The position numbers and the translations under genes were made by a program. From contig OZ243938.1 in assembly GCA_965214095.1 (NCBI GenBank), positions 3,808,001 to 3,872,000 on the forward strand: a DNA stretch of 64,000 bases, in the 5' to 3' direction. Of this stretch, positions 47,195 to 51,832 are shown in pieces (within the stretch, counting starts at the first letter, position 1; every line of letters starts with the position of its first letter). Source of the DNA: Candidatus Poribacteria bacterium. Lineage in GTDB: Bacteria > Poribacteria > WGA-4E > WGA-3G. Below the pieces are notes generated by a model that made no database searches, had not been told where the DNA came from, and saw nothing but the letters and a program-made list of their open reading frames with translations.

Positions 47195-48028
47195 TTACGC
47201 AATCAACACATCGTGAACTGTATCCCATAGGAGTATTATTACATAAGCAATCACGGTGACCACTAATACCACTTTTATCCATTTGTCACCCATTTTTACT
47301 GCCAAATGACTTCCAATCCAGGCACCAGTTGCGTTACCAACCGCCAATGTAAAACCCAAAACCCAATTGACATGCCCCTTGCTAATAAAAATACCTAAAG
47401 CAATGATAGTATAAAAGAATATAATAAAGACTTTATGTGCATTAGTTATCACCAGATCGCTATCATCCAATATTCGCAAGGTAGCAATGACTAACAAACC
47501 AACCCCTGCCTGTATGAAGCCACCATATATACCAACAAAGAATAGAGCAATAAATGTGACAATTTGATATTGCATTCCACTCGGATTTATTTTTTTCTGT
47601 AACCATTCTGTTGGATTAAATAGTGTCAGAATTAGCATTGTAATCATTACAACAGCAAGAACAGGTTTAAATACGCTATAAGGTGTCAAGGTAGCAATGT
47701 ATGCTCCTATTCCTGCACCGATCACGGCAGGGATTGTTAAGTTTATAGCGTGTCGAAAATTTGATACTCCCTTACTGCGGAACCCCATAATTGCACTGAA
47801 GTTTTGACAGATAATCGCCACTCGATTCGTTCCGTTAGCAATGTTTGTTTCATCAGTTCCCGTAGGAAGGGATGAAACATCAATTGCAAAAGGTATAAGA
47901 TAAACAAGAGTGGGTAAAGTCAAGAGAGAACCACCAAATGCAATGGTGTTGAGAAACCCAGCAAACATACCAACTGTCATTAGTAGAATAATATACAAAA
48001 TATCAAGACCGAATAACTCAATTCCCAT
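47195..48028 (-). CDS. Sulfite exporter TauE/SafE family protein
   Basis: GFLNTIA.GGSLL.LP, ANGTNR, G.YGGFIQAGVG. Confidence 0.9.
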   Translation of the reverse strand: MGIELFGLDILYIILLMTVGMFAGFLNTIAFGGSLLTLPTLVYLIPFAIDVSSLPTGTDETNIANGTNRVAIICQNFSAIMGFRSKGVSNFRHAINLTIPAVIGAGIGAYIATLTPYSVFKPVLAVVMITMLILTLFNPTEWLQKKINPSGMQYQIVTFIALFFVGIYGGFIQAGVGLLVIATLRILDDSDLVITNAHKVFIIFFYTIIALGIFISKGHVNWVLGFTLAVGNATGAWIGSHLAVKMGDKWIKVVLVVTVIAYVIILLWDTVHDVLIA

Positions 48029-48311
48029 CAAAATCTCCTTCTCGTTGTGAAGTTTTTCTTGTTCCATGACGATATTTGACAAATCTTATCAAAAGAAATG
48101 CAACAAGATTACCTAAAACAAAAGCACTTATGATCCCAATTAGTAATGAAAATGCAATTGTTTGAAATAACCCGTATCCAAATGGACAATGCCAACCAAA
48201 TATCAGAATTCCAATTCCTGAGATAACTGCTCCGAACAGAAAACCGGTTATGCCAGCAATACCTGATATATTTTGATATTTTTTCAGTTGTGGTAGGTGT
48301 ATTTGAAACAT
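48018..48311 (-). CDS. Small hypothetical membrane protein
   Basis: Two TM segments; overlaps the tauE start. Confidence 0.5.
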   Translation of the reverse strand: MFQIHLPQLKKYQNISGIAGITGFLFGAVISGIGILIFGWHCPFGYGLFQTIAFSLLIGIISAFVLGNLVAFLLIRFVKYRHGTRKTSQREGDFDGN

Positions 48312-48426
48312 ACATCACCAAATAAAATATGTACAATTTGGAATAAACAAATGGTGGTGCGTTGTACAATGCACACACCACCGAGACTTGTTTTCATATT
48401 TGTTGATATGAACTCAATCTGTGATT

Positions 48427-48565
48427 TATAGTAAAAATCATAATTATTTACACACTACGGTAGGTTCGGTTTCCTAACCGAACCAGTGTTTGTCCAGTCT
48501 CATAGATGCGGTTAGGAAACCGCATCTACCGGTGAGTGTGCACGTGTTTTTACATTTCACTATAA
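48427..48565. repeat. REPIN-like inverted REP doublet with terminal IR
   Basis: GTAGGTTCGGTTTCCTAACCGAACC and inverted GTAGATGCGGTTTCCTAACCGCATC; ends TTATAGTAAAA/TTTCACTATAA. Confidence 0.75.
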
Positions 48566-48596
48566 TTATGGAGCAATTTGATGTCATCACAGTATG

Positions 48597-49610
48597 CTAA
48601 TCGATTCCTAAATACTTATTCCTTCCTTTGACAAGTGCTTCTATTTTCCGGTCAACGACTGACCTTTGTAGCATCCAAAACCCGCAGTCTGGATGTACCC
48701 AACCAATTCTTCCAGAACCTAATACCTGTTCTGCTTTTTCTATGCTGGTTGCAACTTCATCAGGAGTTTCAACTGGATTAACTTTCACATCAATGACACC
48801 GATACCGAGTTGTATTTGTGCGGAAACATCCTTGAGTGCATCAAGATCCGCATTCGGACGATGTTTCAACTCTAATACAAGATGGTCGCATCTTAGCATA
48901 TTCAGGAAGTCTATCAGTGCCTTCCAACTACCTTGTTGGATTACTTGACCACCATAATTGCCGAAACAAAAATGTACCGCCTTCTCGCCATCAAATGCAT
49001 CGAGAACAATATTGATTGCCTCAGCAGCACGAGGACCGTCTTGTGGATTACCGGGTATATTTGCCTCATCAACTTGAAGGCATCGGCATTTCAGATCTCG
49101 CACCTGAGCAGACATTGTCTCAGCCAAGGAGGTGAGTAACTTGTCAAAGTCACCGTAATGTTTGTCCAACAAAGTCCGGGCAAGCATGTATGGACTAGTG
49201 ACAGTAAATTTTAAGTTATTACCTGCAACATCCACCGCACGTTCACAATCAGATACAAGGTTTAATGTGCCCTCACCTAAAGTATCCTCAACAACACCCG
49301 CGGGTTTGGCACGGAATGCCATCGTTTGCATCTGTCTAAATTCAGCCCAATCTTGTCGTCCAACTTCTGATCTAATACCAGAAAGCGGCCTTATAAAATA
49401 ATCAATCATCCCATTGGTATCAGGATGATTGACATCAAATCTGTATAGTTCACCATCGGTGGGTAGGTCAATACCGTGTTGCCGTTGTATATCTACTACA
49501 ACTCGGGTCGCATCAATCAGTGCTTGTTCTGACGGCATTGCATGAAGCCAAGATGGCACTGGATACGAACCGACAGTTGTTGTCGATATCTGTGGAGTAT
49601 TTGTTATCAT
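48597..49610 (-). CDS. Cobalamin-independent methionine synthase II family (MetE C-terminal-like), 5' end interrupted by a mini-IS
   Basis: TTVGSYP, TDGE..R, LQVDE, HFCFGN, PDCG; probable native TTG start at 50058. Confidence 0.85.
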   Translation of the reverse strand: MITNTPQISTTTVGSYPVPSWLHAMPSEQALIDATRVVVDIQRQHGIDLPTDGELYRFDVNHPDTNGMIDYFIRPLSGIRSEVGRQDWAEFRQMQTMAFRAKPAGVVEDTLGEGTLNLVSDCERAVDVAGNNLKFTVTSPYMLARTLLDKHYGDFDKLLTSLAETMSAQVRDLKCRCLQVDEANIPGNPQDGPRAAEAINIVLDAFDGEKAVHFCFGNYGGQVIQQGSWKALIDFLNMLRCDHLVLELKHRPNADLDALKDVSAQIQLGIGVIDVKVNPVETPDEVATSIEKAEQVLGSGRIGWVHPDCGFWMLQRSVVDRKIEALVKGRNKYLGID

Positions 49611-50049
49611 ATCTTCGGTGTCAAGACCCCGTTGCTTTAGCACGGGGATGTAGACACCGCTCCTATTGTGTGTCAAGAAAAAACTTGCCTTTTAATCTAA
49701 AAACTAATATAATATCTTTAGCAATCGGCATTGGTTGTGATTGATGCTACGGCAGATAGCTAAGCAGTGAAACAATCACGTAAAAGCTTTGCTATTCAAT
49801 ACTGCTAAAGTTTTCAAAACATCTGTTGCGTGTTAGGGAAAGAAGTTTCAAAACTCATCCCGTTGATATTCACACGTGAAAATGTTTCTTAAGACCTCCT
49901 TTGGAGGTGCAGTTGGGACATCAACTGTTGGAGTAGGCTTTGTCACTGGAATGCCTGTTAGGTTTTCTAAACAAGGTCGTTGATACCACAATTGCTTGTG
50001 TGATTCTTTCAAAAGAATCACCGGAGTTTTAACTCGGTGAGTATGTCAA
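49608..50049 (+). mobile_element. Non-autonomous IS200/IS605-family mini-element (no tnpA/tnpB)
   Basis: LE hairpin 49616-49659 after TTAT; RE GAAT-hairpin-TCAA at 50015-50049; internal promoter TTGCCT-17-TATAAT. Confidence 0.8.
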
Positions 50050-50069
50050 ATTATTCAATATAGGAATCC
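49909..50069 (+). ncRNA. TnpB-type omegaRNA/reRNA-like scaffold plus flanking guide
   Basis: CAGTTG/CAACTG hairpin, RE hairpin, ends TCAA; guide would be ATTATTCAATATAGGAATCC. Confidence 0.55.
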
Positions 50070-50081
50070 TATGCTATGATA

Positions 50082-51092
50082 TTATTCATTAACAAGTTCA
50101 TAAGAGACAAGTTCAAATTCTGATTCTACCGGCACGCCGCCTCTGGTTTGCGTTTGCGTGAATTTAATGATACCGACATTCGGAGCCAACCACTTATTGA
50201 CAACTGTAATATCAAGGTCAAAATCAGGTCCCTGAAGTTCAAAAATCCAGTGAAATGATTCTTGGATTTGGAACACGTTTTCAAAAGTACCAGCAGGGAC
50301 AGTCACAGTTTCTTCAGAGAGAACTTCGAACTCATCTTTACCGTGGTCTAATGGAAAGAGTTCAGGTGCTAATTTTGCTTGAAAATTGACGTCCCATTTC
50401 CAACCGGGTATAAGCGGAAATTTATACAAAGGTAGAAATGGAACAAACATTATCGTATCTTCAGTGCCAGGGGTTATATTCTGTGCGTGTTGGAGAATGC
50501 CTATTATGTTCCCATTGTCGTCTAACTCAGGTCCAAGATAGGAGTAGTCCGCAACATTTTCCAAATCTTCAGCAGTGTTCGTCTTTTCAAGAACAAAACT
50601 CTCAACGGTTTTTCCATCTGCAAGTTGAATCTGTATAGTATCTATAATTTCAAAGATTATCTCTGTGCCTTCAGCATCACGGTATGTCCATTTATTTCCT
50701 ACTGCTAAAGGGTAATAGTTACCTTCTCGTCCACGCCATACTTGGATATCAATGGTGCTTGTCGTAGAGCTTTTGCCATCGCTTACAGTCACATGAATCG
50801 GATATTTTTTTTCATCTTCTGGCGCGATCCAGATTGCCCCGGATTCATCCCCAGATATTTCTCCATTTGCTGCAGACCATGTGTATGTTAAGATATCGTT
50901 ATTAAGATCATACACTTGGAGTCGAATGGATACTTCTGCTTCTGGTAGAACTATCTCCGAATCTGTTTCAAAGACAGAGATTACTGGGGCAAAATTCTTA
51001 TTTCTTGGGACATTCTCATCGATGCCACAACCAACGATAGCTACAATAAAGAGGATACTAAAAAATGTCCAAACGGAACTATTCTTTTTCAT
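50082..51092 (-). CDS. Lipoprotein with Ig/PKD-like domain and beta-rich C-terminal domain
   Basis: Lipobox IVAIVGC; YYPLAVGN.W.Y, E.VTVPAGTF, W.APNVG.IK. Confidence 0.75.
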   Translation of the reverse strand: MKKNSSVWTFFSILFIVAIVGCGIDENVPRNKNFAPVISVFETDSEIVLPEAEVSIRLQVYDLNNDILTYTWSAANGEISGDESGAIWIAPEDEKKYPIHVTVSDGKSSTTSTIDIQVWRGREGNYYPLAVGNKWTYRDAEGTEIIFEIIDTIQIQLADGKTVESFVLEKTNTAEDLENVADYSYLGPELDDNGNIIGILQHAQNITPGTEDTIMFVPFLPLYKFPLIPGWKWDVNFQAKLAPELFPLDHGKDEFEVLSEETVTVPAGTFENVFQIQESFHWIFELQGPDFDLDITVVNKWLAPNVGIIKFTQTQTRGGVPVESEFELVSYELVNE

Positions 51093-51832
51093 GAGTTCAT
51101 TTCCTTGCCACGTAGGACTTCACGTGATTGCGTTGTTCCATTACCTGTGACATTATATGCGAATGTATTCATTAGCCTGTCATTTTGCGAATTATTAGGT
51201 GCAGAGCCGTGTATGATAAGCGCATTGAAGAACACGGCATCTCCAGGATCCATTTCTACTGCAACAGCGTCTTCTCGTTCTTGATAGTGTCCGGGTAGAA
51301 ATACACCGAATGTTTGATGTTTACGTTCATGTTCTTGCAAACCCCAGTTATGACTTCCTGGCACAAACTGAATACATCCATTTTCAAGGTTCGCTTCGCT
51401 TATTGCAAGTTGACAATTTATCATAACTGGTTTGTTGTTGTCATTTTTCCAATAAGCGTAGTCTTGATGCCAAGGAATTGCTGTGCCATCACCACCTGCT
51501 TTCGGTAGAAGTTTGCTATGAAACAGTGATATGTCAGGACCCATCATGCCTTCCAGCGCATCCAGAACGGCATCGGAGCGGAGAAGTCTGTTTAGTGTTG
51601 GACTCACTACTTCACTGTGCATGAGTTGCTTAATTAGCGGTGGGTGATCAGGATCATCTTCGTAGACTTCCCACGAAATACCTATGCCTTGCGTTGGATT
51701 CTCTGCCATACGGTTGTGAATGTCGTCAACTTCTTCTAAAATACTTGTGATGTCTTCTGCGGAGACGAGTCCTTTTTTTAGAAGATAACCGTTGTCTTCA
51801 TAAAATTGTTTTTCTTTATCTGTGATTCCCAT
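51089..51832 (-). CDS. PhyH family 2OG-Fe(II) oxygenase
   Basis: PWHQDYAYW, ENGC....PGSH, HGS.PN.S...R. Confidence 0.92.
   Translation of the reverse strand: MGITDKEKQFYEDNGYLLKKGLVSAEDITSILEEVDDIHNRMAENPTQGIGISWEVYEDDPDHPPLIKQLMHSEVVSPTLNRLLRSDAVLDALEGMMGPDISLFHSKLLPKAGGDGTAIPWHQDYAYWKNDNNKPVMINCQLAISEANLENGCIQFVPGSHNWGLQEHERKHQTFGVFLPGHYQEREDAVAVEMDPGDAVFFNALIIHGSAPNNSQNDRLMNTFAYNVTGNGTTQSREVLRGKEMNS

Follow-up and report, generated by a model that had tools for sequence, protein, structure and literature searches.

A protein-less IS200/IS605-type element with a promoter, a structured RNA domain and a putative TnpB guide RNA at the start of a MetE-like gene in a Poribacteria genome

The window analysed here is a stretch of 64,000 nucleotides (C1:3808001-3872000) from the 5.25-Mb, 94.5% complete assembly (G000) of a sponge-symbiont-type bacterium of the Candidatus Poribacteria, and positions below refer to this window unless a contig is named. 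Positions 49608-50049 are very probably a non-autonomous, protein-less (PATE-like; PATE, palindrome-associated transposable element) member of the IS200/IS605 family, which recently inserted 3′ of a TTAT tetranucleotide in a gene resembling MetE (the MetE-like gene) and encodes a stand-alone guide RNA. The stretch is a discrete mobile unit with ends of the IS608 type, in which a promoter is followed by an RNA domain, here called domain X, and by a TnpB-type scaffold that is read across the right end. Its parts, compared below with three tnpB-carrying elements of the same genome (D, E, and F), are as follows.

49604-49607, plus strand: TTAT target tetranucleotide, retained host sequence; left cleavage site and transposon-adjacent motif (TAM) for TnpB.
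49608-50049, plus strand: the protein-less IS200/IS605-type (PATE-like) element of 442 bp, delimited by its copies, their unrelated flanks, empty sites and a contig of run X5.
49608-49700, plus strand: left end, with 84-98% identity to those of D, E, and F.
49623-49626, plus strand: left guide tetranucleotide AAGA, directly 5′ of the left hairpin.
49627-49647, plus strand: left bulged hairpin, CCCCGT-T-GC TTTA GC-ACGGGG, read from the sequence.
49685-49713, plus strand: promoter-like TTGCCT (49685-49690), 17 nt and TATAAT (49708-49713), scoring 10/12 in a scan and directed to the right end.
49716-49882, plus strand: domain X, a structured RNA of about 170 nt with a pseudoknot, from alignment and covariation.
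49894-50049, plus strand: omega-RNA scaffold region, with homology to tnpB elements at their 3′ end.
50015-50018, plus strand: right guide GAAT, directly 5′ of the right hairpin.
50019-50039, plus strand: right-end hairpin, read from the sequence and followed by AGTATG-TCAA.
50046-50049, plus strand: right cleavage site TCAA, ending 10 nt past the hairpin foot.
50050-50065, plus strand: flank forming the putative guide, a 16-mer unique in the genome; its minus strand holds the native TTG (50058-50056) and codons 2-3 of the MetE-like gene.

The element begins with CATATC, and its left-end copies in the assembly are preceded by TTAT in seven of seven cases. Similarity among the right-end copies stops at ...GTATGTCAA in five of five, with unrelated flanks beyond. 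The boundaries 49608-50049 are therefore correct, and ten additional bases of similarity to one copy (B) are due to chance. The motifs listed in the original prediction (TTAT, AAGA, the hairpins, TTGCCT-17-TATAAT, GAAT, and TCAA) were all read from the sequence where it had placed them, within the 470-nt gap between the MetE-like gene and a PKD-domain lipoprotein-like gene. Both hairpins have a stem-bulge-stem-TTTA architecture on the same strand, without terminal inverted repeats, and are conserved across copies with compensatory changes. The left cleavage site is separated from its hairpin foot by 19 nt (49608-49626), and the end of TCAA lies 10 nt from the right foot (50040-50049). The right guide GAAT is presumably also that of IS608, although it does not occur in the passages of PMC3201880. 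The left (CCCCG...) and right (CACCG...) hairpins of the element, as of D and E, represent different sequence subtypes.

As originally predicted, the element carries neither tnpA nor tnpB. No open frame of at least 60 amino acids (aa) was found on its plus strand and no TnpB remnant by tblastn, and in relatives (alignment A1) gaps that are not triplets disrupt the sole minus-strand frame, of 65 codons. A small peptide gene at 49883-49987 (34 codons, plus strand) was rejected, because its ATG is lost in relatives and the gaps are not multiples of three.

A full copy, B (C1:1616554-1616995, minus strand), differs from the element itself (A) at 2 of 442 positions, and copy C (C1:4996829-4998273), split by an insertion of about 1 kb, differs from A at 1 of 93 and 1 of 358 positions. 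The insertion between codons 3 and 4 of the MetE-like gene is recent, since the copies A, B, and C, located at three unrelated TTAT sites, show no more than 2 base differences. The sequence that splits copy C (about C1:4996922-4997915, in locus L003, C1:4996416-4999773) sits between the -35 and -10 boxes; it is bounded by terminal inverted repeats (GAACTCATA...) with an apparent 3-bp duplication, and contains two DDE-transposase frames, of 154 and 175 codons, that overlap. The assembly also includes additional left or right ends.

An empty allele had been expected in relatives. The MetE-like gene has an orthologue in 23 of the 24 same-genus genomes first drawn, and its body, which is intact, is 82-94% identical to the orthologues (nearest, 94%). 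Nineteen loci were returned from relatives and their 5′ ends examined; the site is empty in all 19, where an AGGA-type site and a start codon, by eye TTG in 15 and GTG in 4, come within about 30 nt after the lipoprotein stop. At these empty sites a TTAT- or TTAA-type sequence is followed directly by the right flank, without target duplication. The three closest relatives (90-94% protein identity) start TTG-AAT-AAT-TTA-ACA-AAT-ACA-CCA (MNNLTNTP), TTG-AAT-AAC-GCT-ACA (MNNATNTP) and TTG-AGC-AAT-ATA-ACC (MSNITHTP), in good agreement with the start MNNITN that had been predicted for orthologues. Public contigs were also placed on 49200-50500. One from run X5, a DNA run by the guess of the tool, joins 49607 to 50050 and omits exactly 442 bases (depth 2.9, shorter side 42 letters), and a second joins 49605 to 50050 with GT in between, representing a TTGT allele. 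The junction reads TTAT/ATTATTC... in the relatives and the X5 contig, and would read TTGTTAT/ATTATTCAAT at this locus. Filled and empty alleles coexist in public data, and the insertion is carried by one genome of the 20 examined, the present one. Since excision is scarless, the empty alleles of X5 are indistinguishable from alleles that were never hit, and nothing can be concluded where runs X5, X6, X15, and X17 leave the stretch uncovered.

The three 1.43-kb elements D, E, and F have only their ends in common with A, and their last 71 nt are 94% identical to its right end. Each contains a 391-codon open frame, and the 386-aa protein matches PF01385 (OrfB_IS605, E 1.7e-24) and PF07282 (Cas12f1-like TNB, E 1.1e-18), and is therefore TnpB. 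The relative with the closest mini-elements (G051, 91% identity) also holds an autonomous form (locus L116), consisting of TTAT, left hairpin, tnpA, tnpB and the same right end; its tnpA encodes 138 aa (PF01797, E 9.7e-37) and its tnpB is 93-97% identical to D. The ends of the element thus match IS200/IS605 elements both in its own genome, through the three tnpB siblings, and in that relative, as the original prediction required. Relatives of the D-type TnpB at E <=1e-60 occur in 31 of 40 genomes of the genus, and most genomes with full mini-elements contain one at 59-97% identity. The PF01797 search of the present assembly returned four full tnpA genes, with a resident TnpA at C1:81623-81976, and one fragment; these resident enzymes are 47-49% identical to that of G051 and belong to IS605-type elements with a TTCAC-type left flank and other hairpins. 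In another genome of the genus (G009), about nine tnpA copies, e.g., C1:783886-784240, align to PF01797 as two segments (2-62 and 55-121), separated in every copy by one TAG at an identical position, either a shared disruption that spread or a read-through/frameshift arrangement.

According to the available part of Meers et al. (bioRxiv 10.1101/2023.03.14.532601), TnpA excises elements of this family scarlessly, and TnpB with a right-end RNA cuts the TAM plus the rejoined site, after which the element is copied back. Here, the transcript would be a stand-alone guide RNA, whose last 16-20 nt would come from the flank. It could direct the TnpB of D, E, or F to TTAT plus the empty site, and the element would be recopied by homologous repair if TnpA excised it. 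The element RNA may in this way guard its own insertion with the 16-nt guide ATTATTCAATATAGGA (unique in the genome). The guide does match the restored allele, as claimed earlier, but this holds for every such element by construction. Movement would need a Y1 TnpA in trans, and a matching one is present in G051 and not in this assembly.

The internal organization was examined in an alignment of 36 copies from about 20 genomes of the genus, extended by 15 copies from the sister genus. Six promoter-like sites were counted in 49400-50300, against 2.4 +/- 1.6 in shuffles. Of the 43 family copies that could be assessed, 34 retain the promoter with at least 9 of 12 matches and a -10 box that ends 4-6 nt ahead of where the conserved RNA begins; its spacer measures 17 nt in 33 of the 34 and 18 nt in the other (L050), and the spacer sequences vary freely. 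For domain X, nine helix segments including the pseudoknot were scored on 44 distinct sequences: 90.5% of the cells are paired, against 77.6% in shuffles, and in 28 of 39 pairs both partners have changed. Covariation scores 0.428, compared with 0.194 in shuffles (none of 500 reaches it), and shifting the partners by 1-3 columns lowers the score to 0.04-0.10. This shifted control and the number of pair types are more telling than the shuffles, as the structure was partly derived from the tested sequences and relatedness inflates shuffle tests. In the pseudoknot helix, pairing reaches 99.5% and each of the five pairs covaries, and the domain has invariant unpaired stretches as well. In the predicted RNA structure, 22 of 74 pairs are compensatory (23 sequences). 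A long-range pairing proposed by RNAalifold between ACAUCU in domain X and AGUAUGU in the right end was rejected, because it shows no variation in A1 and is missing from the sister genus.

The scaffold resembles that of a TnpB guide RNA, which tnpB elements encode at this place. A profile of the mini-element RNA has matches (E ~1e-17) in D, E, and F, covering their last ~127 nt. Side by side, GGTAGGGGCATCTACC of the mini-element is the counterpart of GCAGTTGGGACATCAACTGT in the tnpB elements, and the hairpin GACTTGCTTCGGCAAGC that of GACTTTCTTCGAAAGC; the stretch TTGGAGTAG, as well as GTTGATACCACAAT with the right end, is common to both. The helices of the scaffold region include ones with changes on both sides. 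A second mini-element type, represented by H (C1:4577784-4578260) and N1 (C1:3131647-3132072), has the same promoter and domain X, joined to the scaffold of a second TnpB lineage, 40% identical to D, and to the right end of that lineage (...CACTATGAC), and a third type (N3-N6) has this second scaffold behind a different 5′ part. Given these combinations, the parts are modular.

There are four near-identical protein-less elements of the third type in the assembly (C1:959172-959579, 3279132-3279539, 781029-781436, and 5082162-5082568), with a promoter TTGACA-17-TAAAAT and a right end ...GGGTACTATGAC. They sit exactly against the start codon of a diverging gene, their left flank ...TT(T/C)TCAT being the complement of ATGA(A/G)AA, and the native ribosome-binding site is therefore displaced in four of four. 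A long T-rich target mirroring "ATG-AAA" gene starts would explain this placement. A bias to sites just upstream of diverging genes is not general, as it was seen at 11 of 14 sites in this genome but at 18 of 38 in relatives. A fourth protein-less type of about 570 bp (C1:414086-414660 and 2836273-2836825) has the TTAT target, a similar left end, a right end ...GGGGGAGTATGTCAA and an unrelated interior, and its left-end junction reaches a word depth of 45-81 in RNA-library contigs.

An RNA-library contig of 350-364 nt covers 49711-50049 on the plus strand with 11 differences and one insertion, and is therefore derived from a sibling; beyond the right end it continues for 5-19 nt in a different flank. 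The contig has a word depth of about 34.5, compared with 0-2 on neighbouring genes, and the element/flank ratio in the DNA runs X5 and X6 is about 2-4. This gives a hint, no more, that the unit from promoter to guide is transcribed.

The element might also be a stranded relic, that is, a dead and immobile remnant without a present role for its RNA, fixed in the MetE-like operon as a slightly harmful mutation. This seems rather unlikely to us. Although the cognate TnpA was not found in the assembly and copy C is broken by a DDE-type insertion sequence of about 1 kb between -35 and -10, the 2-base difference among A, B, and C over 442-451 positions at three unrelated TTAT sites points to recent movement. 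Besides, two genera have kept the position of the promoter and the structure of the RNA, with many compensatory changes, public data contain the site both empty and filled, and the genome has three intact TnpB genes whose right end is 94% identical.

Domain X seems to be confined to protein-less elements. Its covariance model, R1, gave five matches in the genome (A, B, C, H, and N1), all of them in such elements. In nine loci of tnpB/tnpA elements (28,492 bases), searched with the filters off, R1 did not find domain X (best E 0.098, 12.6 bits), and a domain X hidden in the 3′ ends of tnpB coding regions was rejected on the same value. By BLAST, domain X occurs in 48 of 176 genomes of the phylum and in 2 of 31 genera (18/39 and 29/65 genomes, without the present one). 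A scan by pattern, covering all prokaryotes with one genome per species, gave at least 80 loci; among the matches listed, R1 matches 36 of 80, whose record titles all name Poribacteria, and the other 44 loci have no R1 match. No Rfam family matches domain X, and no Rfam group I intron matches the element at E <=10.

Two proposals for domain X may be weighed on this distribution. On the one hand, it could be an adaptation of protein-less elements that parasitise TnpB in trans: a pseudoknotted 5′ module that would let the promoter-driven guide RNA out-compete the guides that TnpB takes from its own mRNA, via stabilising the RNA, recruiting TnpB or self-cutting that generates the correct 5′ end, and that would be swapped as a cassette between scaffolds belonging to different TnpB lineages. 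Such an RNA-level hyperparasite, so far only in Poribacteria-titled genomes, is a tentative proposal that may well prove wrong. On the other hand, domain X could be the real cargo, an independent regulatory or catalytic RNA (e.g., antisense or protein-binding) serving host or element, with the mini-elements as vehicles and the scaffold as the price of a functional right end. The fusion of domain X to the scaffolds of two TnpB lineages, its absence in every tnpB element tested, its invariant unpaired stretches and its fully covarying pseudoknot would all suit a cargo. Nevertheless, domain X is never found apart from scaffold and right end, neither in the five matches of this genome nor in the aligned relatives, it matches no Rfam family, and the third type (N3-N6), with a different 5′ part before the same scaffold as the second, indicates that it is not obligatory, so that we regard a cargo as unlikely.

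Several observations weigh against the identification of the element as a protein-less guide-RNA unit. The RNA contigs from X15 and X17 are identical in contigs and sizes, probably because one data set was filed twice, and, being contigs only, they show neither ends nor strand, since contig ends may be assembly branch points. The mixed hairpin subtypes within one element also count here; the ends have recombined between subfamilies, as the autonomous G051 element has CACCG at both ends, and three near-identical copies at dispersed sites speak for movement of the hybrid-ended element. A cognate TnpA, with more than 49% identity to the G051 enzyme, was not found in the 94.5%-complete assembly, so that excision here, current mobility and the proposed switch are possibilities only. 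Genome G049 has a mini-element, and the best TnpB found there with the D query is only 41% identical. Domain X has no counterpart in tnpB elements, so that part of the RNA is unaccounted for. Finally, an Rfam search of the element at E <=10 placed HgcC (RF00062) at 49959-50062 with 26 bits, against a gathering threshold of 50 (E 4.6e-4), and HgcC gave no match at E <=1 on the tnpB elements D and G051. HgcC has been associated with TnpB, an unconfirmed association that does not occur in PMC12558985. The element was not filed as an HgcC member, since the score is below threshold and the tnpB elements lack it; other Rfam matches (HEARO at E 1.3, a plastid UTR, and a snoRNA) are noise.

The genes on both sides of the element are read from the minus strand.

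48597-49610, minus strand: body of the MetE-like gene, 337 codons from the ATG supplied by the element; PF01717 (Meth_synt_2), E 8e-13.
50067-50070, minus strand: native Shine-Dalgarno sequence AGGA of the MetE-like gene, now 450 nt away from the coding body.
50082-51092, minus strand: PKD-domain lipoprotein-like gene, upstream, from its domain and the list of open reading frames.

On the minus strand, removal of 49608-50049 leaves AGGA (50070-50067), 8 nt, TTG AAT AAT and, directly joined, ATA ACA AAT ACT CCA, so that the native start is restored in frame as had been predicted. The same AGGA-spacer-TTG layout is found in relatives, and the 3′ end of the 16S rRNA reads ...CACCTCCTTTCT. With the element present, translation from the native TTG (50058-50056) enters the element and stops after nine codons. 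The first three nucleotides of the element, CAT (49608-49610), form an ATG on the minus strand in frame with the MetE-like gene. The sequence upstream of this ATG, GACACCGAAGAT, pairs poorly with CCUCC of the 16S 3′ end, which bears out the earlier claim of an element-supplied start with a poor ribosome-binding site. The frame is open upstream to a TTG at 49676, and a scan of the minus strand of the element found no terminator-like site. Since there is no such site and the coding body is intact, with the native ribosome-binding site and TTG start removed, expression of the MetE-like gene is most likely lowered and not abolished. The mRNA would have to cross the element against its convergent promoter, and the element RNA would run antisense into the 3′ end of the lipoprotein gene. 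An outward promoter from the left end (minus strand, TTGACA-17-AATACT) was rejected, as its start would lie inside the coding body past the ATG and it is not recreated at B and C.

Scarless excision would restore the MetE-like gene, and the original prediction had described the element as an RNA-only parasite that could act as a reversible switch. Its identity as a protein-less guide-RNA element is supported by the tnpB siblings and the scaffold homology. The switch is conjecture, with no cognate TnpA in the assembly. An adaptive phase switch, in which insertion and scarless excision toggle the gene to the benefit of the host, could draw on the exact native ribosome-binding site and TTG that excision would restore, on the intact coding body and on both alleles in public data. 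It is nevertheless highly improbable, because the insertion is in one genome of 20, nothing seen favours re-insertion at the same TTAT among many thousands, no cognate TnpA was found here, and the empty X5 alleles may never have been hit. In addition, homing by TnpB opposes loss of an element rather than toggling a gene, as the accessible part of Meers et al. (bioRxiv 10.1101/2023.03.14.532601) implies.

Methionine-synthase genes often have structured leaders. The region upstream of the MetE-like gene is structured, and could for this reason be taken for a native cis-regulatory leader, either a riboswitch or an attenuator. The structured RNA, however, lies on the opposite strand, is absent in 19 of 19 orthologous loci and is repeated at unrelated sites, and no Rfam family, riboswitches included, matches 48500-51200 at E <=1. 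This reading is refuted, and its probability is negligible.

In the window, 47195-51832 on the minus strand forms one co-directional run of a PhyH-family dioxygenase, the PKD lipoprotein, the MetE-like gene, a small membrane protein frame and a TauE/SafE exporter, in which the dioxygenase and lipoprotein frames overlap by 4 nt (51089-51092). Given this arrangement, the insertion lies within what is probably an operon, and it may have a polar effect on the exporter. Elsewhere in the assembly, contig C2 (32,066 bases) has 64% G+C, compared with 41% in the 5.2-Mb main contig, and is probably foreign or a bin contaminant.

The locus provides a clean natural example, with both alleles available, of a guide-RNA-only IS200/IS605 derivative at a gene start, whose scarless loss would restore that start. 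Moreover, the protein-less elements of one phylum are not simple deletion products, as they share a promoter and a covarying 170-nt domain absent in tnpB elements, on the scaffolds of at least two TnpB lineages. If domain X helps the RNA to capture TnpB in trans, it would bear on the separability of guide RNA and nuclease, a step toward CRISPR-type arrays, and could offer a natural add-on for TnpB guide-RNA design. If it does otherwise, it would represent a new class of structured RNA with about 50 aligned examples.

Protein-less elements of this kind have been published before. According to the part of the source available, the PATE-like elements of Geobacillus stearothermophilus (Meers et al. 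2023, bioRxiv 10.1101/2023.03.14.532601) likewise have no protein gene, share hairpin ends with tnpB/tnpA elements, carry a guide-RNA region and depend on TnpA and TnpB in trans. In contrast, the element described here has a dedicated sigma-70-type promoter directly upstream and the extra pseudoknotted domain X of about 170 nt before the scaffold. With IS608 of Helicobacter pylori, as far as the available passages (PMC3201880) go, it has in common insertion 3′ of a tetranucleotide, the distances of 19 nt on the left and 10 nt with TCAA on the right, four-base guides directly 5′ of the hairpins, and no target duplication; it differs in the target (TTAT instead of TTAC), in the left guide (AAGA instead of AAAG) and in lacking its own tnpA and tnpB. 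The IS1341-type tnpB-only elements D, E, and F, with their overlapping 3′ omega-RNA, agree with it in the left end (84-98%), the last 71 nt (94%), the scaffold helices and TTAT, but their RNA overlaps the 3′ end of the tnpB coding region and has no domain X, which replaces tnpB in the mini-element. IStrons and their published ORF-less PATE derivatives, in the portion of Zedaveinyte et al. available (bioRxiv 10.1101/2023.11.20.567912), similarly join a large structured RNA to a guide-RNA region in an IS200/IS605 element. Unlike IStrons, the present element has no group I intron match, its domain X is only about 170 nt long, and it has its own promoter and lies antisense to the gene, so that splicing from the host mRNA is impossible. 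In the accessible parts of the literature on such elements, the supplements of which may hold relevant element maps, no description of a dedicated conserved promoter or of a module like domain X was found. The element is of a known kind, in which the positionally conserved promoter and a domain X shared between the scaffolds of different TnpB lineages appear to be new.

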